From positions 512,294 through 576,293 of the forward strand of contig JADJPE010000005.1 in NCBI GenBank assembly GCA_016713425.1: 64,000 bases of DNA. The letters run 5' to 3'. A program made the translations under genes and the position numbers. Within the stretch, counting starts at the first letter, position 1, and the number at the start of each line of letters is the position of its first letter. Origin of the DNA: Deltaproteobacteria bacterium. GTDB taxonomy: Bacteria; Myxococcota; Kuafuiibacteriia; Kuafuiibacteriales; Kuafuiibacteriaceae. A model generated the notes under the pieces. It was not told the DNA's origin. It ran no database searches and saw only the letters and a list, made by a program, of their open reading frames with translations. This document shows, one piece after another, positions 8,346-39,685 of this stretch.

Positions 8346-8386
8346 TCGGTGAGTCGCCCGCGGAGTCTCACCCGCGGGCGCTCGCA

Positions 8387-8420: not shown

Positions 8421-8423
8421 CCA

Positions 8424-9738: not shown

Positions 9739-10174
9739 TACCGACCTTCCTCGCTACTACGAGCCGATCCGTCCCTCGCCCATGCCTTGGTACTCGGCGC
9801 CTCGTGGGTCTGCCACTTGGCGTTCTCCCTTCGCATCACGAGCGAGGTTCCCACGTTCCGTGCAAGAACCTGTTGCAGCTTCACGCCACCTCTATGCCGG
9901 ACGCCGTCTGGGTCGGTAGGCAGGTGTCCCCCAGACTCATCCCGGGCCAACGACTCCGTCCCGGTTTCGACGTCGTCTATACGCTTTCGACAGTTCATCG
10001 GTGGTTCAGTCTTTCGTCTCTCTGCAACCCACATGACGTGGTCTTGGCCACGCCTTTTCCGCGACGCTCACGACCAGGGCCGTTGTGCCCTCGCCGCTCG
10101 CGGTTGTTTGGAGCCTCCGCCTGCACGGCGGCTCCGAGGGGCCCACCCTCATTTCTTGCACAGCACAGCTGCAT

Positions 10175-11002: not shown

Positions 11003-11589
11003 CTTTCCTCCGAGCGGTCCCGTGACCCGGCGCCTCTTTCCCTCAGCCGGGTCCCCTGGGGAGAGTTCCCCGGCTTCCTCGGTACAGTGAGGCGCTCCGA
11101 CTCCCGACCATCCCCTCCCGCCGCGCTTCGTTTCCTTCGCTTGGCGGTACCTGCGTGGTGCTCGTCATTTGCTCCCGCGGGCCCGAGCACTGGCGCCCCG
11201 CGAGCCTGGACCCCTTGTTCCGACGGTCCGAGCCGGGTCGAAGCAGGAGACGGTCGGGCCTCCCAGGTTCCTGGGGATCCCATTTCCATGCGTATGCCGT
11301 GCTCTCAGACCCCGGCGGGACCTCGGCGCCTCGCCCAAACGGCGCTCCGGTGTCGCCGCCGTGCCAAACAACGCCGACGGCTCCCGCGACCCATAGATTT
11401 CGAGGCTCAATCACACAGCCTTCGCACTCCCTGTGTACGCTTCGCAGCCGAGGTCGCCCTCCGGCCACGCAACACTCGGTTCCGGTGGGTGGCTAGCCCT
11501 TGCCGGGCGGGGCTCCTCCCCGCTGGGGTCCGACGAGAAGTTTCAGCCTGTCATCTGCATCCCCTTCTCCCAGGCTTCGCCTGGCGCAC

Positions 11590-16829: not shown

Positions 16830-16834
16830 TAGCG

Positions 16835-19198
16835 CTACGACGGCTTCCGAGAGCGCCGGCGCGCCCAGACACAGAGCGCAAACACCGCGAGGCACTGAAG
16901 ACCACCGGAACGCGCCGTGGTGGACTCGTCATCCCCATGCTCACGCGCGTGCACGGCGCGACACGAACATTCGCCGACGACACCGTCGGAACGACCGCCA
17001 CCGGCTGCGACCATGCCATCGGCATCTACGGCGCCTCGAGCATCGGCCAGCATTCCTGCGTCATCATCACCAGAACCGTCGACCGCCGAAGCATCACCTT
17101 CCGCGTCGCGGCTCGAAACGCCGCCGTCTTCCTGCGCTGGCGTCGCATCGCGATCGCTCTGACCGCCATCGTTCAAAGACCCATCGACCGCGCCATCATC
17201 CGCGCTCGCATCACCAACACCCGCATCATCAACGCCCGCATCCGGTCCGTTTTGCGTCGCGACCTCCAGAACGAAGAGCCCGTCAGCGCCCGTGCCAAGG
17301 TACAAGGGATTCGTTCCCGCGCCGAGCGCAAGACGTTCTGCAGAGACGTTGGGAAGGTTGTATGTTTCATCCACCCAGAACGCGCCGTGATCGAACGAGC
17401 GAAAGACCCCGGATGAAGTGGCGGCCCAAACCGTGGTCGTCGATTCGTCGACGACGAGGCGTCGAATAGAACCCGGGACACCTCCGCCGGGCAGCCAAGT
17501 GGCACCGTCATCCGTCGTCGTATAGAGGCCGCTGTCGCCGATGAAGCCAAGATACGCGCGGCGAGGCGGCCCCGCTTCGATCGCGACCGAGCCGGGAATC
17601 AGATCCCCTGGCAACCCATTCTCGATCCGCGAAAACGAGTCGCCGCCATTCGAGGAGAACAGCATCGTATCGTTCTCCCAGCCCCCGCCCGCCGACGCAA
17701 AGACGATGTCGGCGTCATTCGGATCTACGGCCAACGACTGTACGCATCGATCGGCGGTCTCTCCCGCCAGCGCTGTCCAGTTCTCGGCGCCATCGTCGCT
17801 TCGAAAAACGCCGTACCCACAGGCGGCCACGAAGACGGTCGCTGGTCGAGCCGACGCAACCACGACGAGTTGCACCCCGGACTCCGGCAGCCCGCTGTTC
17901 TTCGCGCTCCATTGGGCACCCCCGTCCGTCGTCTTCATGAGCACGCCGCCGGCGATCGCATAGGCGGTGTCGGTATTCACAGGGTCGAACGCCAGTGCCG
18001 CAACAGCACCGTCGAGACCAAGCGGACGCCAAGTCGCGCCTCCGTCCTCACTTCGCTGTCCGTCGGCGCTCGTTCCGATCCACACCGTGTCCTCGACATC
18101 CGGTCTAATCGTGATCGCCTGAATTCGGGCCGACGACATTCCCGCCGCACTCGGCATCCAATGATCGCCCCCGTCGTCGCTTCGATACACGGCCCGCCCC
18201 ATCGTCCCGACGAAGATCCGCTGCGGCGCTACGGAGGTCACGGTCATCGACGCAATCGACGAGGCCGTGAGTCCGTTCGACACGTCCTCCCAAGCATCGC
18301 CGCCATTGTTCGATCGATAAACACTCGATGCGATCGAGGCGAAAATGCGCCCCGGCGTCGCCGGATCGATCACCAGAGTGTGCACGAGGCCTTCCGGTGG
18401 TCCACTCGGTAGGCCGGTCGGGTGCGGCGCCCAGAGATCACCGCCGTTCGTCGAAAGGTGAAGTCCGAGCCCGGTTCCGACCCAAAGCACCCCGTCCGTG
18501 TCGGGATCGAACGCCAACGTCTCGATCAAGCTGCTGGCGAGCCCCTCCGAAGCATCAGCGAACAAGAGGCCTCGATCGTTGCTTCTGAAGACACCCCCGC
18601 CGCAGCATCCGGTACCCACGAAGACCTGGGTTGCATCATGCGGACTGAACGCAATGGTCCGCACGCTGGCCTCTTGCACGGGAAGTGCGACCGAAGACCA
18701 ATCGGTGCCTCCGTTCTCCGTCCGCTGGAGCATCGTATTCTCACCGATGCGTGAGACGTTGCTCCCAACGATGATGATCGACGCGTTGCTGGGATCGATC
18801 CCCACCGCCGATATGCCGGCCTCCGGTCCGGTTAGGTTCGTGGGGACGACCGACCACGAAGCTGCGTTGTCCGTTGAACGAAATAGACCTGCATCCGTCC
18901 CCGCATACAACGTCAACGGATCGGTCGCGGCGGCCGCCAGCGCGTGCACGTAGTACCCATCAAGGCCGTTGTTCGCACGCCGCCACGTCGCACCCCCGTC
19001 TTCGCTCAGATAGACACCCGCCTGCGTGAGGCCGGCGAAGATTCGAGTCGGCTCGGTCGGATCGACGACCATCGCCGTCACATCGCCGCCATCAGGCCCA
19101 AGCGGGACCCAGTGGGGCGACTGCGCCAAGGCTTCGACCGTCGCGCAGAGGGCGGCGAGACCGAGAGCTACGAATAATCCCGAAGCGCGGCGCTGCAT
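16835..19198 (-). CDS. Secreted BNR/Asp-box repeat (sortilin/VPS10- or GH74-like) protein with a MYXO-CTERM-like tail
   Basis: Signal peptide. About twelve Asp-box-like motifs are present (SEDGGATW, STDNAASW, TENGGTDW, STNGGDLW, SNNGGDAW, SDDGGDHW, TTDGGAQW, SDDGAENW, TTDDGATW and others). An acidic linker follows, then GECSC...LQCLAVFALCVWARRRSRK at the C-terminus. Confidence 0.75.
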   Translation of the reverse strand: MQRRASGLFVALGLAALCATVEALAQSPHWVPLGPDGGDVTAMVVDPTEPTRIFAGLTQAGVYLSEDGGATWRRANNGLDGYYVHALAAAATDPLTLYAGTDAGLFRSTDNAASWSVVPTNLTGPEAGISAVGIDPSNASIIIVGSNVSRIGENTMLQRTENGGTDWSSVALPVQEASVRTIAFSPHDATQVFVGTGCCGGGVFRSNDRGLLFADASEGLASSLIETLAFDPDTDGVLWVGTGLGLHLSTNGGDLWAPHPTGLPSGPPEGLVHTLVIDPATPGRIFASIASSVYRSNNGGDAWEDVSNGLTASSIASMTVTSVAPQRIFVGTMGRAVYRSDDGGDHWMPSAAGMSSARIQAITIRPDVEDTVWIGTSADGQRSEDGGATWRPLGLDGAVAALAFDPVNTDTAYAIAGGVLMKTTDGGAQWSAKNSGLPESGVQLVVVASARPATVFVAACGYGVFRSDDGAENWTALAGETADRCVQSLAVDPNDADIVFASAGGGWENDTMLFSSNGGDSFSRIENGLPGDLIPGSVAIEAGPPRRAYLGFIGDSGLYTTTDDGATWLPGGGVPGSIRRLVVDESTTTVWAATSSGVFRSFDHGAFWVDETYNLPNVSAERLALGAGTNPLYLGTGADGLFVLEVATQNGPDAGVDDAGVGDASADDGAVDGSLNDGGQSDRDATPAQEDGGVSSRDAEGDASAVDGSGDDDAGMLADARGAVDADGMVAAGGGRSDGVVGECSCRAVHAREHGDDESTTARSGGLQCLAVFALCVWARRRSRKPS

Positions 19199-19210
19199 AC
19201 TGAATCTCCT

Positions 19211-20116
19211 CTAGCCGGAAGGGCGTGCACGGCGTCGCATCAGGCCCTCTTGAGTGGTGCTGGCCACCAGCGTTCCGTCCCGCGAAAAGACGGAGCCGCG
19301 CACGAAGCCGCGCGTCCCGTACGCCGACGCGCTGTGCATGACGTGAAGCAACCAATCGTCCATGCGAAACGGGCGATGAAACCACATGCAGTGATCAAGG
19401 CTCGCGACCTGGAGGTCAGGGTCGGTCCACATGACGCCATACGGTCGAAGGGCGGTAGCCACGAAGCTGAAGTCCGAGCAATAAGCCAAGATCGCACGAT
19501 GGAGCGCAGGATCCTCGGGCAGCACCCCGGTCGTCCTCATCCAGATCGCATGGTCGACGCCCTTGGTTTCTGGCCGAAGCACATCAACCGGATCGACCGG
19601 GCGAAGCTCCACCGGCCGCTCCGACACGGCCAACACGTGCATGGGCTCTGGGAGCTCGGCGATGTTTTTGAGCCAAAGCCGACGTTCGTCGATGAGCCCA
19701 TCAGGGCCGGCGATCGATGGCATCGGATCCTGGTGTTCGAAGGGTGCCGGCTCGTCGGCCTGAAATGAACATGCGCACTGAAAGATGACTTCGCCCGCCT
19801 GACGCGCAATGACGCGGCGGGTGCTGAAGCTGCGTCCGTCCCGCACGCGTTCGACGACGTACTCGATCGACGGCTTCATGCGCCCGAGACGCAGAAAGTA
19901 GGCTTGCAGCGAGTGCGGAAGACGTGAGCGTTCCCGCCGCTCGCTCGACGAAGCAACCGGGAGCGTCTCGGCGGCCGCGAACAGAGCCTGACCCAGCACT
20001 TGCCCGCCGAACACCTGACCCCATCCAAAATCGATGCTCTCGCCCAAGAAAACGTCGTTGCCCTGGGGCTCGAGCGAGAGAACTCGCACAAAGTCGCGGA
20101 GGACATCTTGGCTCAT
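19211..20116 (-). CDS. tesB: Acyl-CoA thioesterase II
   Basis: 301 aa with the double-hotdog TesB pattern (LEPQGNDVFLGES...GQVFGGQVLGQAL; ASLDHCMWFHRPF). ATGA overlap with the upstream gene. Confidence 0.8.
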   Translation of the reverse strand: MSQDVLRDFVRVLSLEPQGNDVFLGESIDFGWGQVFGGQVLGQALFAAAETLPVASSSERRERSRLPHSLQAYFLRLGRMKPSIEYVVERVRDGRSFSTRRVIARQAGEVIFQCACSFQADEPAPFEHQDPMPSIAGPDGLIDERRLWLKNIAELPEPMHVLAVSERPVELRPVDPVDVLRPETKGVDHAIWMRTTGVLPEDPALHRAILAYCSDFSFVATALRPYGVMWTDPDLQVASLDHCMWFHRPFRMDDWLLHVMHSASAYGTRGFVRGSVFSRDGTLVASTTQEGLMRRRARPSG

Positions 20117-20820
20117 AGGCCGCTCGGCTCCGGGCGGCTCAGTGGCAAATGTTTAACCGCGACGCGGTATTCAACCGTCAGCGAGACCCTCACCTGCTTC
20201 TTATGGCCAAGCTCCATGCCAAGTTCGAGCTTGCGACTTCGTCGAAGCGAGAGGCTCCCCTCCATCAAAGGCGCCGCCTGAGGATAGCTGTCCGCCCCTG
20301 GCAGCGCGCTTGCCTCGATCAGGCGATGCACGCCGAGTATATGCGTGCCCAGCGCCGCCGCGGCGGCTTCCGCTTTGGCGTTGGCCATCGCGATGCCACG
20401 CGCAAGCCATACCGCCTGACGTTCCGCCGTATCCGGATATCGCCACTCGAGTTCAGAAAGTCGTGTATTCTTTGCCTCCGTCACAACCCCCAACGCGTCC
20501 GGCAAGCCCTCGAGATCTCGGCAGCGAATGCGAAGCCGATACGTGGCCGACGAGGATCGTCCCAGAATCCCACTCGTGACTTCCGCTTGGATGCTGTCCA
20601 GCGAGATGTCTTCGCCACGAATCGGGATCGGACACTCACCAAGCGCCTCAACGAGCTTGGTCACTTCCCGGGCTTTCTGAAATACGGCGCGCCCGGTCAG
20701 CAAGGACGACCCCTGGACATCGACCAAGACATCGGCCTCATTGGCCGCGAGCTCCTCTTCGTAGAGCGCAGAGACGACCAACAAGCCGAACGGCGGAGAT
20801 GGCGTAGCTGAGGAATCCAC
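20113..20820 (-). CDS. SIMPL/DUF541-like protein
   Basis: 235 aa. Its length and layout resemble the 26-kDa periplasmic immunogenic protein / SIMPL family. The assignment rests on overall resemblance only. Confidence 0.45.
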   Translation of the reverse strand: MDSSATPSPPFGLLVVSALYEEELAANEADVLVDVQGSSLLTGRAVFQKAREVTKLVEALGECPIPIRGEDISLDSIQAEVTSGILGRSSSATYRLRIRCRDLEGLPDALGVVTEAKNTRLSELEWRYPDTAERQAVWLARGIAMANAKAEAAAAALGTHILGVHRLIEASALPGADSYPQAAPLMEGSLSLRRSRKLELGMELGHKKQVRVSLTVEYRVAVKHLPLSRPEPSGL

Positions 20821-20869
20821 GCCTCGATTGGACTCCGAGCGTCATCGATTGGCAACCGCCGCCGACCGC

Positions 20870-22054
20870 CTATTTGGGCTCCGATGGCCGCGTCGTTGGC
20901 TCGGTTGGCGAATCCGTCGGACGACCAAACAAACGAATGGCGTTCTCTGCATAGACCTTCGAAAGCACCTCGCTCGGAAGATCGATGCCGTAGATTGGCC
21001 AGTTTCCCTGGATCGGCGTTGGGCTAGGAAGCGTGTCCGAGGTCTCGAGCCACGCATAGTGCGTTCGGAAGAACGCCCCAACCTCTTCGCGTCGGTTGGG
21101 CGTCTTTCCGTACGACCCGAGCATCAAGAACCCGTATCGAGAGACGCCAAGGTCAGTGCCAAAGAGGATTCGATCCTGATAGTTCACAAAGAGCGCACGC
21201 AAACGCTTCGCATCGTGCCGCCCGAGCTCAGGCACGCGCGCTGCGATGTCGACGAAGAGGTTCGGATGTCGCCGCAGAAGCTCGCCGACTCTGAATGGAT
21301 CCTCCGCGTGGTTTCCGAAATGGACGCCAACGAACGTCGTCCTGGGATGGCCCGAAACAAGGTTTTCGAACTGCCGGGTCAACGCCTCGAACGACGGCAC
21401 CGGCGCAAAGTGGTATGACCATCCGGGATGCGCTTCGAGCTCATCGTGGCGCTCGTTGTGTGCATCATCGGGGCGCCAGAACGCCACCGGGTCCGCGGTG
21501 TGGATCACGACCGGCAGCCCGAGCTCGCCTGCGGCTTCCCAAATGGGCGACAACCAAGGATCGTCGACGGCCAACAGGTGGCCGTCCGGGCCCATCACGG
21601 ACAAACCAAGCGCCTTCTCGACTTTGAGCGCCCGCGCACCCCGAGTCTTGGCGACCCTGAGCAATTTGACTGCAAGTTCCGGAAATGTTTCACGAATCCT
21701 CGCCTGTCCCCACGGAAGATTGCAGGCCACGATGAAACGCCCCGTCTGTTCAGCCACCGCGATCTGACGCTCGAGGCCACCGCCTGGCCACCCGCCTGAC
21801 AAGTTGAGCCCAAACGCAATACCCACTTCGTCAAAGATGTCGATCGCACGCGTGGCCTCGGACGGCCCAACATGGACATGCGCGTCGACAACGTACCGCC
21901 TCCGCACCCGAGACGCCGAGGAGACGCCAGCCTCAGCCTCAGCCTCAGCCTCAGCCTGGGCCTCATCACTCGCCGAAGTCGCGGTTCGCCCGGTCCCCGG
22001 TGGACACCCCGCCAGCCCCAGAAGCGGCAGCAACAATATGAACCGGCGGGACAA
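20870..22054 (-). CDS. Amidohydrolase-family lipoprotein (TIM-barrel metal hydrolase)
   Basis: Lipobox (LLPLLGLAGC), HxH metal motif (VVDAHVHVGP) and Amidohydro_2-like body. An (AE)n insert is encoded by a hexanucleotide repeat. Confidence 0.65.
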   Translation of the reverse strand: MSRRFILLLPLLGLAGCPPGTGRTATSASDEAQAEAEAEAEAGVSSASRVRRRYVVDAHVHVGPSEATRAIDIFDEVGIAFGLNLSGGWPGGGLERQIAVAEQTGRFIVACNLPWGQARIRETFPELAVKLLRVAKTRGARALKVEKALGLSVMGPDGHLLAVDDPWLSPIWEAAGELGLPVVIHTADPVAFWRPDDAHNERHDELEAHPGWSYHFAPVPSFEALTRQFENLVSGHPRTTFVGVHFGNHAEDPFRVGELLRRHPNLFVDIAARVPELGRHDAKRLRALFVNYQDRILFGTDLGVSRYGFLMLGSYGKTPNRREEVGAFFRTHYAWLETSDTLPSPTPIQGNWPIYGIDLPSEVLSKVYAENAIRLFGRPTDSPTEPTTRPSEPK

Positions 22055-22126
22055 CTTGGGAGCCCCTATACGACACTCCGTGATTTCTTGCGATGCCCCG
22101 ACCGCGCGATTGATTGCGCTGGGGTC

Positions 22127-23374
22127 TCAGGCGCCTGACGCTGGCTTCGCCCACAGGTTACGCCCGTAGCGCTCCTGTTCGTCCATACGACACGACCAGA
22201 CCAGTTCATCATTCCAAACGGTGATGTCGGGACATGCATCGCACATGTTCATCCGCCCGTCGGCCAGCATGTCGATCGGCTGGATGATCAGCACCGACTG
22301 GAAGTAGAGCGGCTTCATCAGCGCGCTGAGTGGTGCGGTGAGGCTCCGTTTCAAGAACGACTTCGCGATGGTGCGTAGCCCAGAATCGAACGGCGCCAAG
22401 AGCAGGGCTGGCTTCGCCGCCCGATTCGCACGCGCCGGCGCATACGCCAGATACTTGTCGGTTACCAGATGGTGCGCGGTCTGCACCAGCTCCTGAAACT
22501 TGGGCCCAACATAGCCGAGCGTTTGACCGGGGCGACCCACGCGCCCGGTCAAGAGCCACTTGAAGCTCGACGCATCTTCGGTGCCATTGAGATAGGCCGA
22601 AGGCGCAAAATCAGGGAAGCGCTCGCGGATCTTCGCAACCACCTCGCGCGCCGACAGGTGTTGGCGTTTGTTCTTTTCAATATCGAGGTTGTACACCGTG
22701 CTCGACTTCGGCTGGCCCTCGTCGCCAAGAAGCTGCACCGGTTCCGCCCCATTGAAGTACTCGTATGCCGAGGTTCGCACGTCACGGTACAAAATGAAGA
22801 CCATCGTATGGACCGTATCCATGTGGTCTTCCGCCCACTGAACGAGCGCCGGGACATCCCCGAGCGTGTCCGGATAGACCGTTGCGTTGAACGAACATCC
22901 GACGTCGATCGACTTCGCCATGGAGGCAAGCTCCTCGCGCAAGGCACAAAGCTCTAGCTCGGACTTGCCCTTCCACTTGCCGGGGCGCCCCTGCTTGCTA
23001 TCAACATGGAACGTGAAGCCGGCGAGCCCAGCATCCTTCATCTCGTGGAGAAGCGCCTTCGTGAGCGCGTGTCCGTTCGTATTCACGACCGGCTTGACTC
23101 CACGCTTCTTCGCCTCGCGAATCGTCGGAAGGAGATGGGGATAAAGAAGCGGGTCTCCGCCAGCGATCGACAGCGCATCACTTTTTCGGTAGCGACCGAA
23201 GACATCGAGGTCATGCAACGTATCTTCGAACGGTTTGTGCTGAACTCGATTCTCTCGATAGCACCCGTCGCAGGACAGGTTGCACTGTGCCGTCGGCTCT
23301 AGCCAGGAGATCCCGTTGTCGCAGAGATTCCAGGGCAGGCGATAGAGTTCCAGATGGTTCAATGAAGTTTCCAT
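22127..23374 (-). CDS. Radical SAM enzyme with a Cys-rich C-terminal extension
   Basis: CxxxCxxC motif (AQCNLSCDGCY), GGDPLLYP, and C-terminal NMCDACPD...WSCRMDE. The start is set at ATG 23374, with GAGGAG just upstream. The ORF-track extension to 23608 overlaps the upstream gene. Confidence 0.8.
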   Translation of the reverse strand: METSLNHLELYRLPWNLCDNGISWLEPTAQCNLSCDGCYRENRVQHKPFEDTLHDLDVFGRYRKSDALSIAGGDPLLYPHLLPTIREAKKRGVKPVVNTNGHALTKALLHEMKDAGLAGFTFHVDSKQGRPGKWKGKSELELCALREELASMAKSIDVGCSFNATVYPDTLGDVPALVQWAEDHMDTVHTMVFILYRDVRTSAYEYFNGAEPVQLLGDEGQPKSSTVYNLDIEKNKRQHLSAREVVAKIRERFPDFAPSAYLNGTEDASSFKWLLTGRVGRPGQTLGYVGPKFQELVQTAHHLVTDKYLAYAPARANRAAKPALLLAPFDSGLRTIAKSFLKRSLTAPLSALMKPLYFQSVLIIQPIDMLADGRMNMCDACPDITVWNDELVWSCRMDEQERYGRNLWAKPASGA

Positions 23375-23409
23375 GATTCTCCTCAACGCACGCAAGCCCT
23401 CGACTTGCG

Positions 23410-24708
23410 CTAAAACTGGATCGTGCGCTCCGCATCCGACAAGGTCGATAGGCTCATGCGTTCGCGGTAGAACTCGGTCCACAGCCGCATGTATCCTTCG
23501 TGGAGCTGCTCCGGCGTCATCTTCGCCGGTCGGAAGACGACGTTCGCGTCGTTGTACTTCGACCAATCCTGAGTCAGAATTCGGTCTTCCTTCAACAAGC
23601 GATGCCACGATGGTGTTCCTGGATAGGGCGTAAAAACCGCGAACTCCGCCTTTCGGATCTTGGTTCGGTTTGCGAACTCGAGCATACGGTCGACCGTTCC
23701 AAGATCGTCCTGGTCACCGCCGAGAAGAAACGAAGTGTATGGCTCGATGCCCATGTCCCACGCTTTGGCGATCGAGTCTTCAGCCTTCTGAAGGGACACG
23801 GGATCATCTCCCGTGAACGCACGCATCGAGATGGGGTCGAAGCCGCCCACGAGGTAGAACATGTTGACGCCGGCCGCTTTGGCTCGCTCGAAGAAAGCCG
23901 GCTTGGTGCTCAAGATCATGGGCATGCTGATGCCCACGTAACTGATCAGCGCATCCCCCGGTCGTTCGGCCAAGTAGTCGAACAAGCTCCCCATCAGACG
24001 CCGGCCGCTGCTTCCCGGGAACCAAGCGGTATCCTCGGTGAGGCAGGCTCGCTTGCCCGCCTTCGAGAGCTGCTCCATCTGGCCCACCACGTGAGAGACC
24101 GAGAACAACCGAAGGTTGCGTGTCATTGAGTACGGGAGCACACAGGCCTGACAAGACAGCGCACAACCGCGCGAGATCTGCACAGGATAATCATCGGGCG
24201 GAAGCGTGGGCGATTCGTTCTCGAGATAGACACGCACGTCCGGGAGCGGCAGGTTCTCGAGATCGAGGTTCGGTTCGGCACGATACAGAGGCTTGAGTCG
24301 CTTGTGTTCGACAAAGTCGCGGAGCAGCTCAAGCCATACGCCTTCGCCCTCGCCAACCACGACGGCGTCGACGTGGGGCTCGACGACCTCGGGCATCATC
24401 GTCGGAAAGATGCCGCCCGCCACGACCGCTCGGCCCTCGGCGCGAAAATAGTCAGCCAACTCAAGCCCACGTCGCGCCGCCGGCGTGAAGAAAGACAGCG
24501 CCACAATGTCTGCGTCGGTCGGCCGATCGGCGGCGACAACGCGATCGTCCCGAAACTCCACGGTCCAATCTTTGGGCGTCATGGCGGCAATCGCCGCGAT
24601 GCCGAGCGATGGTGACCCAAGGTACTCCTTCATGGGGACGACTTCCCGAAGCCCTGGATTGCTCTCGGCGTGACGCTGAAAACGTGGATAAACGAATAGG
24701 ATCTTCAT
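23410..24708 (-). CDS. B12-binding-domain (class B) radical SAM enzyme
   Basis: N-terminal Rossmann-like cobalamin-domain pattern (KILFVYP...IVALSFFTPAARRGLELADYF...VVAGGIFPT) followed by a radical SAM core (ISRGCALSCQAC). ATGA overlap with the ACAD gene. Confidence 0.8.
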   Translation of the reverse strand: MKILFVYPRFQRHAESNPGLREVVPMKEYLGSPSLGIAAIAAMTPKDWTVEFRDDRVVAADRPTDADIVALSFFTPAARRGLELADYFRAEGRAVVAGGIFPTMMPEVVEPHVDAVVVGEGEGVWLELLRDFVEHKRLKPLYRAEPNLDLENLPLPDVRVYLENESPTLPPDDYPVQISRGCALSCQACVLPYSMTRNLRLFSVSHVVGQMEQLSKAGKRACLTEDTAWFPGSSGRRLMGSLFDYLAERPGDALISYVGISMPMILSTKPAFFERAKAAGVNMFYLVGGFDPISMRAFTGDDPVSLQKAEDSIAKAWDMGIEPYTSFLLGGDQDDLGTVDRMLEFANRTKIRKAEFAVFTPYPGTPSWHRLLKEDRILTQDWSKYNDANVVFRPAKMTPEQLHEGYMRLWTEFYRERMSLSTLSDAERTIQF

Positions 24709-26294
24709 CCGACAACCTCGGCGTAGACCGATCCTGCGATCGTTCGAACGCCTTCAAGGGGAGGACACGGTTCGAGGTGCATCTTCGCCTCAACCTGTGC
24801 GCCATCCAGAAAAAACTGAGCCAACGAATGCGCAGAATCAGACCCCTCAGCGATCGCTCGGGCGACGGCCGCATCGCACGCGTCGCGCAGGACGACCAAG
24901 CGCCCAAGCGCGTGGATGTCGAGGTGTCGGCGCAGAAGGCGTAGGCCATGCGCGGCCTTCAAAGCTTCGAGTTTCTCGCGGACCCGGCGGTGAAACGCGT
25001 TCGCCTGCTGAGCCAAAGCGCCGCGCGGCGAGGCGTCCTCGACGAAGTCCGGACGCGTATCGGGCTGAGCGATCTCGATCGTCCCGGCGTGAACCAGCAA
25101 GACATCGTTTGCGCCCTCGAAAATGCGTGTAATTCGGGCGTCGCGGAGGAGCATGGGCATCGGCGTCTCCTCGATGAAGCCCGAGCCCCCATGAAGCTGA
25201 AGCGCCATATCGACGACGGTCCAGTCGCTCTCGCTGGCGAAAACCTTGGCGGAGATCGAGCGTCGAAGAAGTCGATCCGGGTCGTCGGCGACCAGTCCAA
25301 CCGCCGAAACCAACGCTTCCATGGAAAAGCAGAGTGCCGCCATCTTCGCGACTTGGGCCTTGACCACGTCGAGCTCCGCGAGACGCTTTCCAAACTGGAC
25401 ACGCGCGGTGACGTATTCGACCGCGCTCATGAGCGCGGTCCGCGCCGCCCCCGTGCAGCCAGCGGCCATCGCGGTGCGCCCCCAAGCCAACACATGCTCG
25501 AGGTGACTCATACCCTTGCCCGGCTCACCGATCACGCGCGACATCGGCACGCGCACGTCGTCGAAGTAAAGCGGAACCGTCGAGGATCCGCGAAGGCCGA
25601 GCTTCGACTCCTCGGGGCCCACGTCGACGCCCTTGTCTTCGCGTTCGAGAAGCAGAAGGCTGTGTCCGCGCCGCGCACCGCCAAGCGACGGCGTCGACGC
25701 CGTGATCGTCACGACGCTCGCGAGTCCGCCGTTCGTCACGTAGATCTTGTCGCCACGCACGATGAGCGCATTTGCCTCGGCCAGCTCGTTCGTCGCGGTC
25801 GCGGTCGCCGTCTCCGTGGCCATCTCCGTCGCCGTGGCCGTCGCCGTCGCGGTCGTCCGAATGGCCGAGAGATCGCTTCCCGCGGCCGGTTCGGTCGTCG
25901 CAAACGCAGCGATCTTCGAGCCCGCAGCGAGGTCGGGCAGGTATCGCTCTCGAAGTGCCGCGGAACCAAACGCAACGAGCGGCCTGGTCCCTAGCCCGAG
26001 ATGAAGCCCCACCGTGGTCGCAAGCGAGCGATCCCAGCGCGCCAACGCAGCGATGGCGGTGCAGACGCCGGACAAGCTAAACCCGGCGCCCCCATGCTCT
26101 TCGGGAATCGACAGACCGAACAGACCGAGCACCGCCGCTTCGCGCAGCAGCTCGCGCGGAATCCGGTGCTCGCGGTCAATCGCTTTCGCATCGATGCGCT
26201 CACGTCCGAAGCGATCGATGTTTTGGGTCAAAGACCTGAGGACGTCGGGCTCGTCCGTGTTGGTTCCTGCGAATATCGTTGCTTGTGTGATCAC
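24705..26294 (-). CDS. Acyl-CoA (or acyl-ACP) dehydrogenase
   Basis: ACAD hallmarks (FATTEPAAGSD, IYVTNGG, GGSGFIEETPMPMLLRDARITRIFEGANDV). It contains a TATATATATEMATETATATAT insert. Confidence 0.85.
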   Translation of the reverse strand: MITQATIFAGTNTDEPDVLRSLTQNIDRFGRERIDAKAIDREHRIPRELLREAAVLGLFGLSIPEEHGGAGFSLSGVCTAIAALARWDRSLATTVGLHLGLGTRPLVAFGSAALRERYLPDLAAGSKIAAFATTEPAAGSDLSAIRTTATATATATEMATETATATATNELAEANALIVRGDKIYVTNGGLASVVTITASTPSLGGARRGHSLLLLEREDKGVDVGPEESKLGLRGSSTVPLYFDDVRVPMSRVIGEPGKGMSHLEHVLAWGRTAMAAGCTGAARTALMSAVEYVTARVQFGKRLAELDVVKAQVAKMAALCFSMEALVSAVGLVADDPDRLLRRSISAKVFASESDWTVVDMALQLHGGSGFIEETPMPMLLRDARITRIFEGANDVLLVHAGTIEIAQPDTRPDFVEDASPRGALAQQANAFHRRVREKLEALKAAHGLRLLRRHLDIHALGRLVVLRDACDAAVARAIAEGSDSAHSLAQFFLDGAQVEAKMHLEPCPPLEGVRTIAGSVYAEVVG

Positions 26295-26333
26295 GCAAAC
26301 GCCCCTTGTCGACGAGCGAAGTATGCCGTTCGC

Positions 26334-26591
26334 TCAGGCTGCGAGGAGCCGTTTCTTCGCCATTTCCATCACCCCGTCAACGGTGGTGATCGCCATCGCC
26401 TCTTCCATCTCGACTTCCAAGTCGAACTCTTCCGCGAGGGCGGAAAGGAGCTCCATCGAGGCCACCGAATCCATGCCCAAATCTTCGCGCAGACGATCGG
26501 TGGGTTTGATGTCGGCGAGGCGCACGAGAGACAGCTCGGCGATGACGCGAAGGATCTTTTCGTCAAGGTTGTGTGATTGATTCGCTTCCAT
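26334..26591 (-). CDS. Acyl carrier protein
   Basis: 85 aa with the phosphopantetheine attachment motif DLGMDSVASMEL. Confidence 0.85.
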   Translation of the reverse strand: MEANQSHNLDEKILRVIAELSLVRLADIKPTDRLREDLGMDSVASMELLSALAEEFDLEVEMEEAMAITTVDGVMEMAKKRLLAA

Positions 26592-27597
26592 GTTCGGTAC
26601 TCCAATAACCGGGCTGTTCGGGGATCAACCGCATTCGTCGCGCCCAGTCGTCGAATGCATCCAGGGTCTCGGTCCACGATCGAAAGCGCGCGCCCAAGGC
26701 CTGCGTCGCCAAACTCGCATCCACAGGCGCGCCGTGCACGATGAGGTCGACGATTTCGCGGGAAACCGCCGGACGACCACCGCACTCTGCCGCACGCGAC
26801 TCCTCCGAAAAAGCCAGCGCCTTGGCTTCGTCGGCGCGAAGCGGTGCCGAAGGTGGCGCGACACCGTATCGCTTGGCGAGTGATTCGAGCATCGGATGAA
26901 CCTGTCGATTGTGTGCCGCCATCAAGACGCGCTTCGGGACAGAGGTCGTCGAGAGCGCCATTTTGGCAACGAGCTGCCCGACGTCGCGCGCGTCGACGAT
27001 GTTCACGATGCCGTCTGGATGCGGTGGATTCACGCCTCGCGCGATCCCAACGACGAGCGCGGACGTGCCCACTCGAAGATCCCAGGGGCCGATGCACGCC
27101 CCGGGGCACGCGATCACGACCTCGAGGCGCTGCTCCGCCAACGCGATGGATTCCATTGTCCATTTGAGGTCGTGATACAGCCCGAATCCAGGCACGCTCG
27201 CGAAGCCATCGGCCTCGGTCGAGGCCGAACCGTCGGCGCGCGGCGCGATCGTCGCGGTGCTCGAAACATAGACCACCCGTTCCACCCCGCTCGCGGCAGC
27301 GGCGTCGAGGACGTTCTCGAGCTGCGTCCGGCCGATGCGGATCGCGCCCTCGTAATCGAGCGAGAGTCGCGGATAATACCCGGCGGCATGAACGACGGTC
27401 TTGGTATCGCGCATCGCTTCGCGAAGTGTTTCTGGCTGCTCGAGGTCGGCAACGACCATGGGCAGCTTCCGAGAGCGCAAAGGAATGACGTTGCTGCGCA
27501 CGCGACGTCCACAGCGGGGCGTCGACCCGGCCGCAACGAGGGCGTCGACGATGTTGAGCCCCAGGAAGCCGCCGGCACCTAGCACGAGCGTGCTCAT
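26563..27597 (-). CDS. NAD-dependent epimerase/dehydratase-family SDR (3-beta-HSD-like or reductase)
   Basis: LVLGAGGFLGLNIV glycine motif and YHDLK catalytic Y-x3-K. The start ATG 27597 overlaps the FAAL stop (ATGA). Confidence 0.75.
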   Translation of the reverse strand: MSTLVLGAGGFLGLNIVDALVAAGSTPRCGRRVRSNVIPLRSRKLPMVVADLEQPETLREAMRDTKTVVHAAGYYPRLSLDYEGAIRIGRTQLENVLDAAAASGVERVVYVSSTATIAPRADGSASTEADGFASVPGFGLYHDLKWTMESIALAEQRLEVVIACPGACIGPWDLRVGTSALVVGIARGVNPPHPDGIVNIVDARDVGQLVAKMALSTTSVPKRVLMAAHNRQVHPMLESLAKRYGVAPPSAPLRADEAKALAFSEESRAAECGGRPAVSREIVDLIVHGAPVDASLATQALGARFRSWTETLDAFDDWARRMRLIPEQPGYWSTEHGSESITQP

Positions 27598-29387
27598 CGA
27601 AGATCCTTCAATTTCTCGGCGCACGCACGGCGCCGAAGCTTCCCACTCGTCGTCCGCGGGATGCTCCCGGCCGCGACGAACAAGATATGCTCCGCACGCA
27701 CCGCGAGGCTCTCGGTGAGCCGACCTCGAGTTCGCTTCTGCAACTCTTCTTGCTCGGCCTGCGACTCGATGCGGCGTTCGATGACGATCGCCAGATCTTC
27801 AGTGCCTCGGTCGGGTTGGATGATGGAGACGGCGGCCACCTGATTGAGCGGCACGCCGATCGCCTCGGCGACCACATTCTCGATCTCGTACGGGTGGAAC
27901 TTCTGTCCGCCCTTGATGATGAGCTCTTTCTCCCGCCCCGTAACGTAGAGCTGGTCGTTTGCGATCACGCCGAGATCGCCGGTCGCGAGCCAGCCGTCGA
28001 CGAGGACGCGCGACGTGGCCAATGGGTCGCGATAGTAGCCGCTCAAGAGCGACGGGCTCCGGACCCAGATTTCGCCCTCTTCGCCCTCGAGACATATTCG
28101 GCCATTCGAAGACCGAACTTCCACGACCGTATCGACCAAAGGTCGCCCGACCGATGGAACGGCGCGGCCGCCCCACACGAGATCTTCCGTCGCCGAATCT
28201 TCCGTCGTCGAATCTTGCGTCGCCGAATGTGCCGTCACCGAATGTACGCTGGCGGCTCGTGGCGTCGGAAACGCAACGCCGAGAGTATTCTCGGCCAAGC
28301 CATAGACGGGCAGCACGGTCCCGCGCCTGAGCTTCGCGTCCGCGAAGCGAGTCTCGAACGCGTCGATCGTAGTGCGATGAACGGGCTCGGAGCCATTGAG
28401 CGCAACGCGGAGAGTGCTGAGGTCGAGGCCATCGAGATTGCGCACGCGCCGGGTGACCGTATCGTATCCGAAGTTGGGTGCCACGGTTATGGTGGCGCCT
28501 ACGTGCGAAATGAGTTCAAGCCATCGCTTCGGGTGGAGCAAGAACTCGGACGGGGTCATGAGGTGAAGCGGAAATCGGTAGGCGAGCGAGGTGAAGAGCG
28601 CACCGACGAGCCCCATGTCGTGGAAGAGCGGCAACCAGGACACGCCGACATCTTCCGATGTGAGGTTGAGGCCACGACCCATGGCAAGCGTCGATGCAAG
28701 CGCAGCTCGGTGGGAGATAACCGCCCCCCGAGGACTTCCGGTCGATCCCGAGGTAAATTGGATGAACGCTGGAGCCTCACCATCGCTCGAGGCGATGGCC
28801 TCGTCGGCGAGGACGTCGGGCCGCGGCATCGTCGCCATGGAGGGCTCGAGAGGCTTCGTCAAGACCGCCGGGAACCACGCGCCCGCAGCCTGCGCGCGAT
28901 CGGTGGTCACGACGGCCGCCGGGGTGGCAACGTCGAGGAGTGGTCGAAGGTCGGCGATCTTCTTCTCTAGGTTATCGAAGAAGAACGGCCAGGCGATCGG
29001 CACCGGTGTGGCCCGCAAGAACTGCGCCCCCAAGAATGCGCCGACGAAATCGCTCCCGTTGGGCAAGAAGATCACCACCCGGTCTTCGGGGCGTACGCCG
29101 CGTTCGTGAAGGGCCATGGCCCAACGAAGCGCCAGGTCGAAGATCTCCTTGGGGCTCCAGGCGATTCCGTTCTTGCCTTCGTAGACCGTCAGCCAGGGGG
29201 CGGAGGCCTCTCGCTCGGCGTCGTCGACATCTACGCTGGCCTCGACGCCGGTATCGACGCGCAGGCGGTGTAGAAGCACACCCGCCAACGTCGGCGAAGC
29301 GCTGGTCACCGACGAGGAGGACGTCGGCCCGCACAGAACACTCGGACGGCGCTGCCGTTCGCTCGAAGCCTCGATGTCGGCGCCCAT
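27594..29387 (-). CDS. Fatty acyl-AMP ligase / AMP-dependent synthetase
   Basis: Adenylation core motifs (FIQFTSGSTGSPRGAVISH, GDLG, IPRTTSGKLRR). It is a stand-alone adenylating enzyme encoded next to an ACP gene. The FAAL-specific insertion was not checked. Confidence 0.75.
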   Translation of the reverse strand: MGADIEASSERQRRPSVLCGPTSSSSVTSASPTLAGVLLHRLRVDTGVEASVDVDDAEREASAPWLTVYEGKNGIAWSPKEIFDLALRWAMALHERGVRPEDRVVIFLPNGSDFVGAFLGAQFLRATPVPIAWPFFFDNLEKKIADLRPLLDVATPAAVVTTDRAQAAGAWFPAVLTKPLEPSMATMPRPDVLADEAIASSDGEAPAFIQFTSGSTGSPRGAVISHRAALASTLAMGRGLNLTSEDVGVSWLPLFHDMGLVGALFTSLAYRFPLHLMTPSEFLLHPKRWLELISHVGATITVAPNFGYDTVTRRVRNLDGLDLSTLRVALNGSEPVHRTTIDAFETRFADAKLRRGTVLPVYGLAENTLGVAFPTPRAASVHSVTAHSATQDSTTEDSATEDLVWGGRAVPSVGRPLVDTVVEVRSSNGRICLEGEEGEIWVRSPSLLSGYYRDPLATSRVLVDGWLATGDLGVIANDQLYVTGREKELIIKGGQKFHPYEIENVVAEAIGVPLNQVAAVSIIQPDRGTEDLAIVIERRIESQAEQEELQKRTRGRLTESLAVRAEHILFVAAGSIPRTTSGKLRRRACAEKLKDLR

Positions 29388-29458
29388 GGCAGGGGTGGGA
29401 TATCAGATACTTTCGACCGAAGATTTGTCGAAAGGCAAAGTTGGGCGGGTTCGGTCAA

Positions 29459-31585
29459 ATGAAACCCCAAAGCATCCTACCAGTCAGTCCAAAGCGATGT
29501 GCGGCTCCGCACTGGGGGCCGGAGGACGGGGCTGGGCGCGAATATCCTGGCTTTCACTTTATCCGAGCGAACGCTTATGAGATTCAAGCGGACGTGAAGG
29601 CCTGGACGAGCCGTGACTCGGCTGAACTCTACAACACCGTCGCTTGGAGCAAGGGCTACTTCGACGTCAACGCGCAAGGCAACGTCATGCTCACCTCGAA
29701 CGCGACGGGGGGCGGCGAAATCGACATCAAGCGGGTTGTGGACGACCTGGTTCGACGCGGCCTTTCGATGCCGCTGCTGCTTCGCTTCTCGGACATTTTG
29801 GAGCGGCAGGTTGAACTCATCAACCACACGTTCCAGGAGAAGATCGAGGAGTATGGCTACAAGGGACGCTATCACCTGGTCATGCCGATCAAGGTGAATC
29901 AGCAACGTCATGTCGTCGAAGAGCTCACCGAGTTTGGGCGACCGCACGGCCTTGGGCTGGAGGCCGGGAGCAAGCCGGAGCTCTTGATCGCGCTCGCGCT
30001 TCTCGATCAGCCTGACGGTCTCATCGTCTGCAATGGGTACAAGGACGAGGCCTACATCGAGACGGCGCTCCTGGCACAGCGACTCGGTCGAAAGCCGCTG
30101 ATCATCATGGACCGTCTGGATGAACTCGACCTCATCATCAAGACCTCTCAGCGTCTCGGGCTGCCCCCGAACATCGGCGTGCGAAGCAAGCTCTCCACGA
30201 AGGGGAGCGGCCGATGGGCCGAATCGGGTGGTGACCGCTCCAAGTTCGGTCTTACGGCGGGCGAGCTCGTCCACGTGGTCGAGACCCTCGAACGGGAATC
30301 GATGCTGGATCGTCTCATGTGTCTGCATTTTCACATCGGGTCGCAAGTCACGGCCATTCGCGCGATCAAAGAGGCGCTCGGCGAGGCGGTCCGGATCTTC
30401 GCCGACCTCTACAAGATGGGCGCCCCGCTTCAGTACCTCGACGTGGGCGGAGGCCTGGCCGTCGACTACGATGGCTCGCGAACGAACTTCCACGCCTCGA
30501 AGAATTACAGCCTCGAAGAGTACGCGGCCGACATCGTCTACCATGTGGGCAGCGCACTCGATGAACAGGGGGTTCCTCACCCCACGATCATCTCGGAGTC
30601 AGGCCGGGCGTTGGTGGCGCACCAAGCCGTCTTGGTGTTCAACGTCCTCGGGCAGACGACTCAGCGAGTCGACCCTTCGGGCCCGAAGGCCTCGACGAGC
30701 GACGATCATCAGATCATCGAAGACATGCGCGAGATCCTCGCGACGGTGAACCGCAAGAACTATCAGGAAGCGTATCACGACGCACTTCAGCTCAAGGAAG
30801 ACGCGCTGTCGCTCTATCGGCACGGAATCCTCGATCTTCGGGGTCGCGCCCTTGTCGAGGAGCTGTTCTGGTCCACGGCGAACAAGATCTGGCGAATCGC
30901 GAAGGAGCTCGACTACGTCCCGGAGGACCTCGACGGCCTCGAGAAGCAGCTCTGCGATACCTACTACTGCAACTTCTCGGTCTTTCAGAGCGTTCCCGAT
31001 TCGTGGGCCGTGAAGCACTTGTTCCCAGTGATGCCGATCCACCGCCTCAACGAGCAGCCGACGCGACGCGGGATCATCGCCGACCTAACGTGCGACAGCG
31101 ACGGCAAGATGGATCAGTTCATCGACCTGCACGACGTGAAGCCGACCTTGGAGCTCCATCCCCTGAAGGAAGGCGAACCGTACTTCCTTGGCGTCTTTTT
31201 GGTGGGCGCCTACCAAGAGATCTTGGGCGATCTTCACAACCTCTTCGGTGACGTGAACGCCGTGCATATCCGCCTCGACAAGAAATCCGGCGGCTACTCG
31301 GTCAAGAACGTCGTCGAGGGCGACCGCGTCAAGGACGTCCTATCTTACGTGAGTTACGATCAACGCTCGCTGATGGAGCAGCTGCGAGCGTCGATCGAAC
31401 GCGCGCTCACGCGTGGCACGATGACCTTCGAAGAGAGCGCGGCGTTGGTGCGAAACTTCGAGGCCGGGATGTCCGGCTACACCTATCTCGAGGTCCCCGG
31501 GCTCGCAGAGACCCTTCTCAGCTCCGTCCTGCCTTCGCCGGCCCTCAAGTTGCTGCAGCGCAGCGACCAAGCCTCCGAAGGTTGA
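29459..31585 (+). CDS. speA: Biosynthetic arginine decarboxylase
   Basis: LLRFSDILERQV, PIKVNQQRHVVEEL (PLP-Lys region), GLEAGSKPEL, HFHIGSQ, YLDVGGGLAVDYDG and CDSDG. The start is either ATG 29459 or GTG 29594. The ORF-track extension back to 28940 is antisense to the FAAL gene. Confidence 0.9.
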   Translation: MKPQSILPVSPKRCAAPHWGPEDGAGREYPGFHFIRANAYEIQADVKAWTSRDSAELYNTVAWSKGYFDVNAQGNVMLTSNATGGGEIDIKRVVDDLVRRGLSMPLLLRFSDILERQVELINHTFQEKIEEYGYKGRYHLVMPIKVNQQRHVVEELTEFGRPHGLGLEAGSKPELLIALALLDQPDGLIVCNGYKDEAYIETALLAQRLGRKPLIIMDRLDELDLIIKTSQRLGLPPNIGVRSKLSTKGSGRWAESGGDRSKFGLTAGELVHVVETLERESMLDRLMCLHFHIGSQVTAIRAIKEALGEAVRIFADLYKMGAPLQYLDVGGGLAVDYDGSRTNFHASKNYSLEEYAADIVYHVGSALDEQGVPHPTIISESGRALVAHQAVLVFNVLGQTTQRVDPSGPKASTSDDHQIIEDMREILATVNRKNYQEAYHDALQLKEDALSLYRHGILDLRGRALVEELFWSTANKIWRIAKELDYVPEDLDGLEKQLCDTYYCNFSVFQSVPDSWAVKHLFPVMPIHRLNEQPTRRGIIADLTCDSDGKMDQFIDLHDVKPTLELHPLKEGEPYFLGVFLVGAYQEILGDLHNLFGDVNAVHIRLDKKSGGYSVKNVVEGDRVKDVLSYVSYDQRSLMEQLRASIERALTRGTMTFEESAALVRNFEAGMSGYTYLEVPGLAETLLSSVLPSPALKLLQRSDQASEG

Positions 31586-39488: not shown

Positions 39489-39685
39489 GCGAACAATGAG
39501 AAATGCGTGCCAAGCGCCAATGGGCGGATTTGAGCTCGACGCCGGTGCAACGCGCGCGTTGCACTGAGAACACAGCTTTGCACCTCGAACGCACCGGCAC
39601 CGTCGACCGACGGACGCCGGGGCGGGAGAAGGTATCCATAAGTGCTGGCCAGATCTACCCCGCTCAGCCTAGGGTCCCGCGGAGC

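Follow-up and report, generated by a model that had tools for sequence, protein, structure and literature searches.

Known acyl-tailoring cassettes and how the locus compares

Carrier-protein-based cassettes that tailor acyl chains are known, and here we compare with them a six-gene operon from a bacterium of the Myxococcota labelled Deltaproteobacteria bacterium (assembly GCA_016713425.1). The stretch analysed, called the window below, covers 64,000 nucleotides (contig JADJPE010000005.1, positions 512,294 to 576,293), and the operon occupies positions 22127-29387 of its minus strand. It encodes a ligase resembling fatty acyl-AMP ligases (FAALs), an extended short-chain dehydrogenase/reductase (SDR), an acyl carrier protein (ACP), a flavoprotein of the acyl-CoA dehydrogenase (ACAD) family, a radical S-adenosylmethionine (SAM) enzyme with a B12-binding domain (B12-rSAM) and a second radical SAM enzyme (rSAM2). 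We propose, with a probability of roughly 0.5, that the operon is self-contained, tailors acyl chains on a carrier protein and is typical of uncultured Myxococcota. The operon extends the known cassettes of this kind and is not a wholly new kind of system.

In the biosynthesis of clorobiocin and coumermycin, the set CloN4, CloN5, CloN3 and CloN6 comprises an adenylating enzyme that charges a carrier protein, an ACAD-family flavoprotein that oxidises the bound substrate and a B12-type radical SAM enzyme that C-methylates it, leading to a 5-methylpyrrole-2-carboxyl group (PMC11218499). The operon likewise brings together an adenylating enzyme, a carrier protein, an ACAD and a B12 radical SAM enzyme in one cluster. 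However, the substrate of the Clo enzymes is proline, which is handled by an adenylation domain of the nonribosomal peptide synthetase (NRPS) type and a peptidyl carrier protein, with no SDR and with acyltransferases that serve a sugar, whereas the operon has a FAAL-like ligase, an ACAD resembling very-long-chain acyl-CoA dehydrogenase (VLCAD) and an integral reductase. A previous sequence-only reading of this DNA did not recognise the pairing of FAAL, ACP and ACAD with two radical SAM enzymes as a described pathway. No description of the gene set was found in the searchable literature, and to that extent the statement stands, but CloN4/N5/N3/N6 provide a precedent on proline (PMC11218499).

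Mycobactin biosynthesis (MbtL, MbtM and MbtN) and the lipid-tail cassettes of lipopeptides also combine a ligase of the FAAL type with a dedicated ACP and a dehydrogenase of the ACAD family, which together yield a 2-enoyl-ACP. Unlike MbtLMN, the operon has neither an acyltransferase or NRPS partner nor an MbtN orthologue, and it contains a B12-rSAM and an SDR in addition. Fatty acid activation, carrier tethering and NAD(P)H-dependent reductive release to an aldehyde or alcohol make up the A-T-R logic of ElbD and the carboxylic acid reductases. ElbD, a myxobacterial ether-lipid enzyme (cited in PMC11868695), comes from the same phylum as the operon, which is likened to it by this described logic; moreover, the fused ligase-SDR proteins of three related loci (L006, L007 and L055) resemble A-R proteins. 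However, the window's proteins are discrete, their reductase falls in the branch of cinnamoyl-CoA reductase (CCR)/dihydroflavonol reductase (DFR) and HpnA rather than among the NAD_binding_4 thioester reductases, and ElbD comes without an ACAD and without a radical SAM enzyme.

The proposed anammox ladderane pathway, itself unproven, comprises amxACP, a desaturase and a B12 radical SAM enzyme of TIGR04072 (PMC13459092). As in that hypothesis, desaturation of a chain bound to a dedicated ACP would be followed by the action of a B12-domain radical SAM enzyme, but the ladderane desaturase is phytoene-desaturase-like, and the B12-rSAM of the operon is not a TIGR04072 protein (39.3 bits against a cut-off of 360). 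The second radical SAM enzyme shares a full-length fold with Tes/GDGT-MAS, although the sequence similarity is marginal. Its spread over the FCB group and Myxococcota resembles that of one clade of Mss homologues (PMC13159169), a likeness of distribution; unlike Tes and Mss, it sits in ACP-based operons rather than acting alone. In a Polyangiales-type variant of the operon, an alpha/beta-hydrolase, a condensing enzyme, an AMP-ligase and an extended SDR represent the families of OleB, OleA, OleC and OleD. However, the condensing enzyme resembles FabF rather than a thiolase, the score of the SDR with the OleD model is 35.5 bits (cut-off 580), and Ole, an olefin/beta-lactone pathway, works without an ACP, ACAD or radical SAM enzyme. 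A 2026 review of lipid-modifying radical SAM enzymes covers only Tes, Mss, Gms, GrsA/B, Gmm, Cds, HpnH/J/P/R, Jaw5 and the ladderane enzymes.

Organisation of the operon

The operon and its presumed promoter region comprise the following features.

27594..29387, minus strand: FAAL-like acyl-adenylate/acyl-ACP ligase; longest open reading frame (ORF) 597 aa; PF00501, 189 bits
26563..27597, minus strand: extended SDR; Pfam matches Epimerase, 3Beta_HSD and NAD_binding_10
26334..26591, minus strand: ACP; 85 aa; PF00550, 46.4 bits
24705..26294, minus strand: VLCAD/ACAD9-type ACAD flavoprotein; 529 aa; all three ACAD domains
23410..24708, minus strand: B12-rSAM; 432 aa; PF02310, 41.4 bits
22127..23374, minus strand: rSAM2; 415 aa from the ATG at 23374; PF04055, 44.3 bits
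29388..29560: intergenic, presumed promoter region, between the operon and the divergent arginine decarboxylase gene (speA)

The genes are tightly coupled. The stop codon of the ligase gene and the start codon of the SDR gene have an ATGA in common at 27594-27597, as do those of the ACAD and B12-rSAM genes at 24705-24708. The SDR stop at 26563 and the ACP start codon at 26591 produce a 29-nt overlap, and the gaps are 39 nt between the ACP and ACAD genes and 35 nt between the B12-rSAM and rSAM2 genes. Strand, coordinates, overlaps and gaps were all read from the sequence as the sequence-only reading had given them, and its six gene family assignments were confirmed by Pfam and NCBIfam, while none of the six proteins reached a curated NCBIfam cut-off. 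No strongly hydrophobic 19-residue window occurs in any of them, and all six look soluble.

The intergenic region is 93% identical over 156 nt to that of a relative, L090. A promoter scan of 16500-29800 returned no promoter-like site, and no sigma-70-like site was detected in the intergenic region at 29388..29560; terminator-like sites in 16500-29800 were not above those of shuffled sequence. An Rfam scan of the whole window revealed no cobalamin or other riboswitch upstream of the operon.

Conservation and the core module

L090, taken from a public sequencing run and about 85% identical at the nucleotide level, has all six genes in an identical order. It is syntenic with the window from speA to the rSAM2 stop codon (window position 22137), where the synteny breaks. 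All six genes are under strong purifying selection, with dN/dS values against L090 of 0.12 for the ligase, 0.085 for the SDR, 0.057 for the ACAD, 0.032 for the B12-rSAM, 0.021 for rSAM2 and 0.006 for the ACP.

Homologues of the B12-rSAM number more than 1,200. Identity to it is 61-70% in the best 120 clusters (96% in one), and none of these 120 carries a functional name. A profile scan with one genome per species retrieved 124 relatives, the best 80 of which were used for the locus counts. Almost all of these 80 loci belong to metagenome-assembled genomes (MAGs) labelled Deltaproteobacteria, Myxococcota, Myxococcales, Archangium, Sandaracinaceae or Polyangiales; a few are labelled only Proteobacteria/Pseudomonadota, and two carry the labels Enterobacteriaceae and Klebsiella. 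A second search with a Sandaracinaceae copy as the seed again recovered only MAGs, and no named isolate among the relatives retrieved carries the operon.

Ten proteins of the window were searched against the loci with tblastn, and the denominators below are the assessable loci. Beside the B12-rSAM gene, the ACAD was present in 71/73 loci, the ACP in 65/67, the SDR in 60/61, the ligase in 43/56 (about 77%) and rSAM2 in 10/48, and each of the four genes downstream of the operon (amidohydrolase, SIMPL, TesB and BNR) in 0/46. The gene-called contexts of further loci agree with these numbers. Because of these counts and contexts, we consider SDR-ACP-ACAD-B12-rSAM as the fixed core. The ligase gene is commonly present but not required in cis, rSAM2 is accessory, and the four downstream genes are unrelated passengers. 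The sequence-only reading had presented a six-gene set and suggested a co-occurrence search for it; the core does recur, in about 80 species-level loci, but the conserved unit is smaller than the set, with the ligase in about three quarters of the loci and rSAM2 facultative.

Where rSAM2 is present, it is the first or last gene of the operon. The ATGA overlap between the ligase and SDR genes is kept in about 20 loci, and the two genes form a single fused ORF in L006/L007 and L055. The ACAD and B12-rSAM genes are always adjacent, even in the inverted Polyangiales-type order ACP-B12-ACAD. Dozens of independent genomes repeat the gene order of the window with its ATGA couplings, and the arrangement is therefore not due to chance. 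No conserved replacement of the ligase was found in the 13 ligase-less loci; in one of them, L047, an unrelated radical SAM gene lies at the ligase position.

Facultative neighbours of the module include a FabF-like ketosynthase (KS) with an alpha/beta-hydrolase, a DAO-type flavoprotein, a PLP-dependent Beta_elim_lyase protein and Crp- or LuxR-type regulators. Acyltransferase, NRPS and polyketide synthase (PKS) genes are not recurrent neighbours within 10 kb in about 80 loci. In the Polyangiales-type variant, the order is KS-ligase-SDR-ACP-B12-rSAM-ACAD (L079, 4678-12845; also L080, L083, L086 and L088), and an alpha/beta-hydrolase gene lies upstream of the KS gene in L079. A tryptophanase-sized PLP enzyme of the Beta_elim_lyase family adjoins the module in six species-level loci, L077 (3997-5388 and 11310-12668), L011, L023, L032, L074 and L087, and a shorter Beta_elim_lyase protein is encoded near rSAM2 in L002.

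Ligase, ACP and ACAD

The best NCBIfam match of the ligase is a fatty acyl-AMP ligase subfamily (357.6 bits, cut-off 600). Against solved structures, it scored 235 bits with the E. coli FAAL (3PBK) and 136-228 bits with 7R7E, 3KXW and FadD32/23/28, and about 114 bits with the CoA ligase FadD13. The core of the ANL fold is represented by the motifs SGSTG213, YGLAE362, TGD469 and SGK581; the N-terminal ~70 aa are poorly conserved.

The FAAL-specific insertion (~20 aa between motifs A5 and A7), named in the sequence-only reading as a point to check, did not prove to be a family trait. The distance from YGLAE (A5) to TGD is 107 aa in the window and about 109 aa in EcFAAL, but the median over 51 orthologues is 87 aa (range 70-104), and in the alignment the extra segment of the window is missing from most of them. 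In the window, the segment is encoded by an in-frame 15-nt tandem repeat (28182-28243) at the site of the FAAL insertion; by its sequence, it is a lineage-specific repeat and not the conserved insertion. For this reason, the enzyme is named FAAL-like here. That it would load the dedicated ACP is suggested by context, namely the adjacent ACP in 65/67 loci, and not by its sequence.

The ACP has the motif LGMDSV with the serine at residue 42, and its best NCBIfam scores are against ACP models of the fatty acid synthase (FAS) type. Its L090 counterpart is 99% identical, and no other gene of the operon is as strongly conserved.

The ACAD domains lie within residues 20-400 of 529 and are followed by a C-terminal extension of about 130 aa or more; the context of the catalytic glutamate is IFEG at residue 392. 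Among solved relatives, ACAD9 (235.7 bits) and VLCAD (222.9 bits) score above a prolyl-ACP dehydrogenase (125 bits). By these similarities, the protein is a VLCAD/ACAD9-type flavoprotein, and it is presumed to act as an acyl-ACP 2,3-dehydrogenase. Membership of the MbtN family (47.4 bits, cut-off 700) or of the prolyl-carrier-protein dehydrogenases RedW (177.5 bits, cut-off 650) and PigA (164.8 bits, cut-off 500) was rejected, as all scores are far below the cut-offs. The middle domain contains a lineage-specific (Ala-Thr)n insert, encoded by an in-frame period-6 repeat at 25791-25855, and the ACAD of L090 is 20 residues shorter (509 vs 529 aa).

The sub-threshold matches to RedW and PigA bear on the nature of the substrate. 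Together with the presence of the same four enzyme families as in CloN4/N5/N3/N6, where a prolyl-S-carrier protein is converted to the pyrrolyl form before C-methylation by the B12 radical SAM enzyme, they would fit an amino acid or other small acid. However, fatty acyl-AMP ligases are by a wide margin the nearest relatives of the ligase, those of the ACAD are very-long-chain enzymes, whose C-terminal extension it shares, and the top-scoring models for the carrier are of the FAS type, so that we regard a small substrate as very improbable.

B12-domain radical SAM enzyme

The B12-rSAM exceeds the PF02310 cut-off of 32.1 bits and also matches DUF4070 and Radical_SAM. The three cysteines of its CxxxCxxC motif (C182, C186 and C189) are invariant, and the protein is 60-70% identical across Myxococcota. 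No NCBIfam model came near its cut-off; the best was TIGR04013 (63.7 against 251). Besides TIGR04072, the candidates HpnR (24.3/650), HpnJ (24.9/577.6), BchE (42.1/481), MgmA (27.4/360) and AprD4 (25.9/500) were rejected on this basis, and HpnH, like the other hopanoid models, scored far below its cut-off within the operon. The AlphaFold2 (AF2) model (pLDDT 86.5) has its top fold match in AprD4 (TM 0.73-0.75), followed by the cobalamin-dependent methylases MgmA, TsrM, CysS and TokK. CysS and TokK were crystallised with pantetheinylated substrates. Taken together, sequence and model place the protein in an unnamed subfamily with class B architecture and make it a candidate for cobalamin binding and methyl transfer.

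These matches also allow a different chemistry within the same operon, in which the B12-rSAM would act on the ACP-bound chain as a dehydratase or isomerase in the manner of AprD4, or else as a desaturase or a cyclase. The task of the SDR would then be that of AprD3 after AprD4, the reduction of the carbonyl or alkene so formed, and not the release of the chain. AprD4 is the best match among solved structures in both sequence and fold, relatives of the SDR include kavalactone reductase, DFR and ketoreductases, and no NCBIfam methylase model was approached. On the other hand, the identity to AprD4 is only 17-18%, the other top folds are all cobalamin-dependent methylases, two of them solved with pantetheinyl substrates, and the operon has no gene that would install the vicinal diol for an AprD4-type reaction. 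Moreover, the ligase-SDR fusion fits a pair of loading and unloading enzymes better. We therefore consider a non-methylating B12-rSAM somewhat unlikely.

SDR

The SDR has a GxxGxxG motif (GAGGFLG at residue 7) and a YxxxK motif (YHDLK at residue 141). The arginine after strand beta-2 (R41) is invariant, as are the basic residues there, which suggests that the enzyme uses NADPH and hence works in the direction of reduction. The family profile, compared with the Protein Data Bank (PDB), matched two uncharacterised proteins first, then CCRs and, after these, kavalactone reductase, anthocyanidin reductase and DFR (4R1S 94.9 bits, 6NBR 92.7 bits, 5TQM 84.8 bits and DFR 73.3 bits; 4R1U was also matched). 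The protein is probably an NADPH-dependent reductase of the CCR/DFR, HpnA-like branch of the extended SDRs. CCRs reduce alpha,beta-unsaturated thioesters to aldehydes, and this is the type of substrate that the ACAD would generate. An assignment as the hopanoid SDR HpnA was rejected, as the score against TIGR03466 is 141.7 bits (cut-off 367.65) and no hopanoid genes are present among the scanned window ORFs or the recurrent neighbours. The sequence-only reading had left reduction and epimerisation side by side. Because the SDR is coupled or fused to the ligase and has the CCRs as its nearest relatives, a reductive off-loader is more likely, and the part of the claim concerning an epimerase has become less so.

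The near-universal SDR also bears on the fate of the chain. A modified acyl chain might instead be handed by acyl transfer to a lipopeptide, siderophore, lipid A-like molecule, amino lipid or similar acceptor whose genes lie elsewhere, in the manner of the mycobactin cassette MbtL/M/N, which is located away from its NRPS genes. The trio of ligase, ACP and ACAD is the hallmark of such cassettes, and an alpha/beta-hydrolase and a KS lie beside the module in the Polyangiales-type variants. However, the SDR would have no role in such a scheme, the ACAD is unrelated to MbtN (47 bits vs 700), and acyltransferase, NRPS and PKS genes are neither recurrent within 10 kb in the about 80 genomes nor present in the scanned ORFs of the window. 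Delivery to an acceptor encoded elsewhere is therefore an unlikely outcome.

A breakdown of fatty acids is conceivable as well. The ligase, the VLCAD-like ACAD and the SDR all belong to families that also serve beta-oxidation, a TesB thioesterase and a class 3 lipase are encoded nearby in the window, and CoA ligation is possible given that the FAAL insertion is not conserved. The operon would then salvage unusual fatty acids, for example prey-derived or branched ones, by activation, dehydrogenation, radical rearrangement and 3-hydroxyacyl oxidation. We find this quite improbable, since a dedicated ACP is present in 65/67 loci and is the most conserved gene (dN/dS 0.006), the conserved core contains no hydratase or thiolase, with a KS recurring only in the Polyangiales-type variant, and the TesB and lipase genes are unlinked to the module in other genomes. 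Likewise, the basic residues after beta-2 of the SDR would favour NADPH, hence reduction rather than oxidation.

Proposed pathway

The proposed tailoring operon is based on observed families, motifs, folds, synteny, gene couplings and fusions and purifying selection; from these we infer the chemistry, including every step of the route. The ligase would adenylate a long-chain fatty acid and attach it to the dedicated holo-ACP, whose acylation may fall to another enzyme in genomes that lack the ligase. The VLCAD-type flavoprotein would then oxidise the tethered chain to the trans-2-enoyl thioester. The B12-rSAM might carry out a radical C-C modification on the pantetheine-bound chain near the thioester, the likeliest reaction being a cobalamin-mediated C-methylation at C2-C4, before or after desaturation, and the alternative a cyclisation or rearrangement. 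Finally, the NADPH-dependent SDR would reduce the thioester and release a modified fatty aldehyde or alcohol, destined for a membrane or signalling lipid. Where rSAM2 is present, it may perform a further radical step on an unactivated carbon of the lipid tail. The enzymes would thus form two sub-modules around the ACP, a load/unload pair (ligase and SDR) and an on-carrier tailoring pair (ACAD and B12-rSAM). The acyl-chain tailoring pathway outlined in the sequence-only reading appears largely right, but is re-scoped here to a four- or five-gene core in which the SDR is the releasing reductase.

Several observations weigh against this proposal. As the FAAL insertion is not conserved, the exclusion of CoA by the ligase is without sequence support. 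MbtN and the other known acyl-ACP dehydrogenases are not relatives of the ACAD, whose ACP specificity is read from context. The closest fold of the B12-rSAM is that of AprD4, a diol dehydratase that is not known to use cobalamin, and neither a cobalamin riboswitch in the window (Rfam) nor B12 genes near the operon were found. Kavalactone reductase, an enone reductase, is as close to the SDR as CCR is; the NWYCY motif, the CCR signature, is absent from the SDR, whose catalytic region reads LYHDLKW, and the SDR could instead be a keto- or enoyl-reductase. In addition, the KS and alpha/beta-hydrolase or the DAO-type flavoprotein of some variants hint at a more complex chemistry. All carriers of the module are uncultured MAGs.

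Second radical SAM enzyme

The CxxxCxxC cluster of rSAM2 is formed by C31, C35 and C38. Four further cysteines (C160, C378, C381 and C395) are invariant and could hold auxiliary metal sites. The family is large (3,934 matches), with more than 50% identity across Myxococcota, Ignavibacteria, Kapaibacteria and Bacteroidota. The sole full-length fold match of the AF2 model (pLDDT 87.2) is the archaeal tetraether synthase GDGT-MAS, an enzyme that couples lipid tails (7TOL; E 5.9e-13, 461 aligned columns, TMq 0.57, identity 16%), and the other fold matches cover the radical SAM core only. At the sequence level, rSAM2 scores 40.1 bits against the Tes model NF045702 (cut-off 450), and phmmer against 7TOL gave 22.3 bits over residues 24-156 only. 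Judging from its model, rSAM2 is Tes/GDGT-MAS-like in fold and not a sequence-level member of the Tes family.

Elsewhere, rSAM2 occurs alone, with unrelated genes after it, or at the head of a type II FAS/PKS-like operon with an HMG-CoA synthase cassette. A conserved partner was sought in the ~500-aa genes that follow rSAM2 in L004, L005 and L008; these are mutually unrelated and absent from the window, and the candidate was dropped. In a Myxococcota MAG (GCA_046351175; L002, 10001-21213), and also in L003, a 66%-identical rSAM2 homologue heads a type II FAS/PKS-like operon. The L002 operon encodes a KS, two ketoreductases, an acyltransferase, a FabA/ApeI-like dehydratase, an HMG-CoA synthase, two enoyl-CoA hydratases, an SDR and an ACP, and a class I/II aminotransferase gene is convergent to it. 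It looks like a pathway to a beta-branched lipid.

Combined with the Tes-like rSAM2, the module might enable uncultured, low-oxygen Myxococcota to make alkyl chains that are radical-modified, methyl-branched and perhaps also coupled tail to tail, hence membrane-spanning. This is a speculative extension of the tailoring pathway to which we give little credence.

Surroundings of the operon in the window

Downstream of rSAM2, four co-directional genes had been listed alongside the operon in the sequence-only reading, and their annotation as Amidohydro_2, SIMPL, TesB-like and BNR/Sortilin-type propeller proteins was upheld. As members of the pathway, however, they were rejected on account of the co-occurrence count (0/46) and the synteny break in L090. 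The BNR/Sortilin-type protein (16835-19198, minus strand) passes the cut-off of the F510_1955 glycosylhydrolase family (207.9 vs 175). Its hydrophobic-basic, Cys-containing C-terminal tail resembles a MYXO-CTERM sorting signal, and no NCBIfam MYXO-CTERM model matched the protein at E <= 0.01. The class 3 lipase mentioned above is also encoded near the operon.

The large window ORFs that were scanned contain no NRPS or PKS, as had been stated before; the other scanned ORFs comprise housekeeping, protease, toxin and mobile-element genes. Within 7721-11516 (minus strand), Rfam gives four matches to group II introns, two of the domain 5/6 type (7721-7796 and 8348-8422) and two of D1-D4 (10032-10150 and 11300-11516), with a reverse-transcriptase ORF fragment at 10502-11002. 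A single group II intron or two of them, perhaps nested or in tandem, are suggested by these features. An IS110-family transposase gene (DEDD_Tnp_IS110 and Transposase_20) lies at the window edge (3-1100, plus strand). On the minus strand at 57191-58315 and 60958-63981, a protein with a C-terminal Tox-REase-7 nuclease toxin domain and, close by, a large RHS-repeat/FG-GAP protein suggest a polymorphic toxin locus (57191-63981). Additionally, a full-length angiotensin-converting-enzyme-like peptidase M2 (39503-41662, plus strand; 765 bits) is encoded ahead of an M1 aminopeptidase (42343-44985).

Significance

Characterised radical SAM enzymes acting on inert lipid chains are few, and almost all work on archaeal ethers or hopanoids (PMC13459092). 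The operon represents a compact and very well conserved bacterial case, in which a B12-domain radical SAM enzyme appears to act on a carrier-held fatty acyl chain. Action of a B12 radical SAM enzyme on an ACP-bound chain has been hypothesised for ladderanes and never demonstrated, and the alkylation or cyclisation of an ACP-bound enoyl thioester by such an enzyme, if the extended route with rSAM2 is true, would be a new reaction. With five or six soluble proteins, the operon is small enough to make heterologous expression and in vitro reconstitution realistic.

The operon is spread over both major classes of Myxococcota, in MAGs named for lake, groundwater and wastewater. Because it is widespread in MAGs and absent from the named isolates retrieved, its product may be an abundant, as yet unassigned environmental lipid. 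Moreover, the Tes-like rSAM2 ties the operon to the question of who makes branched membrane-spanning lipids; should the combined route hold, these Myxococcota would produce branched or 'overly branched' tetraether-type biomarker lipids without having been recognised as a source of them.

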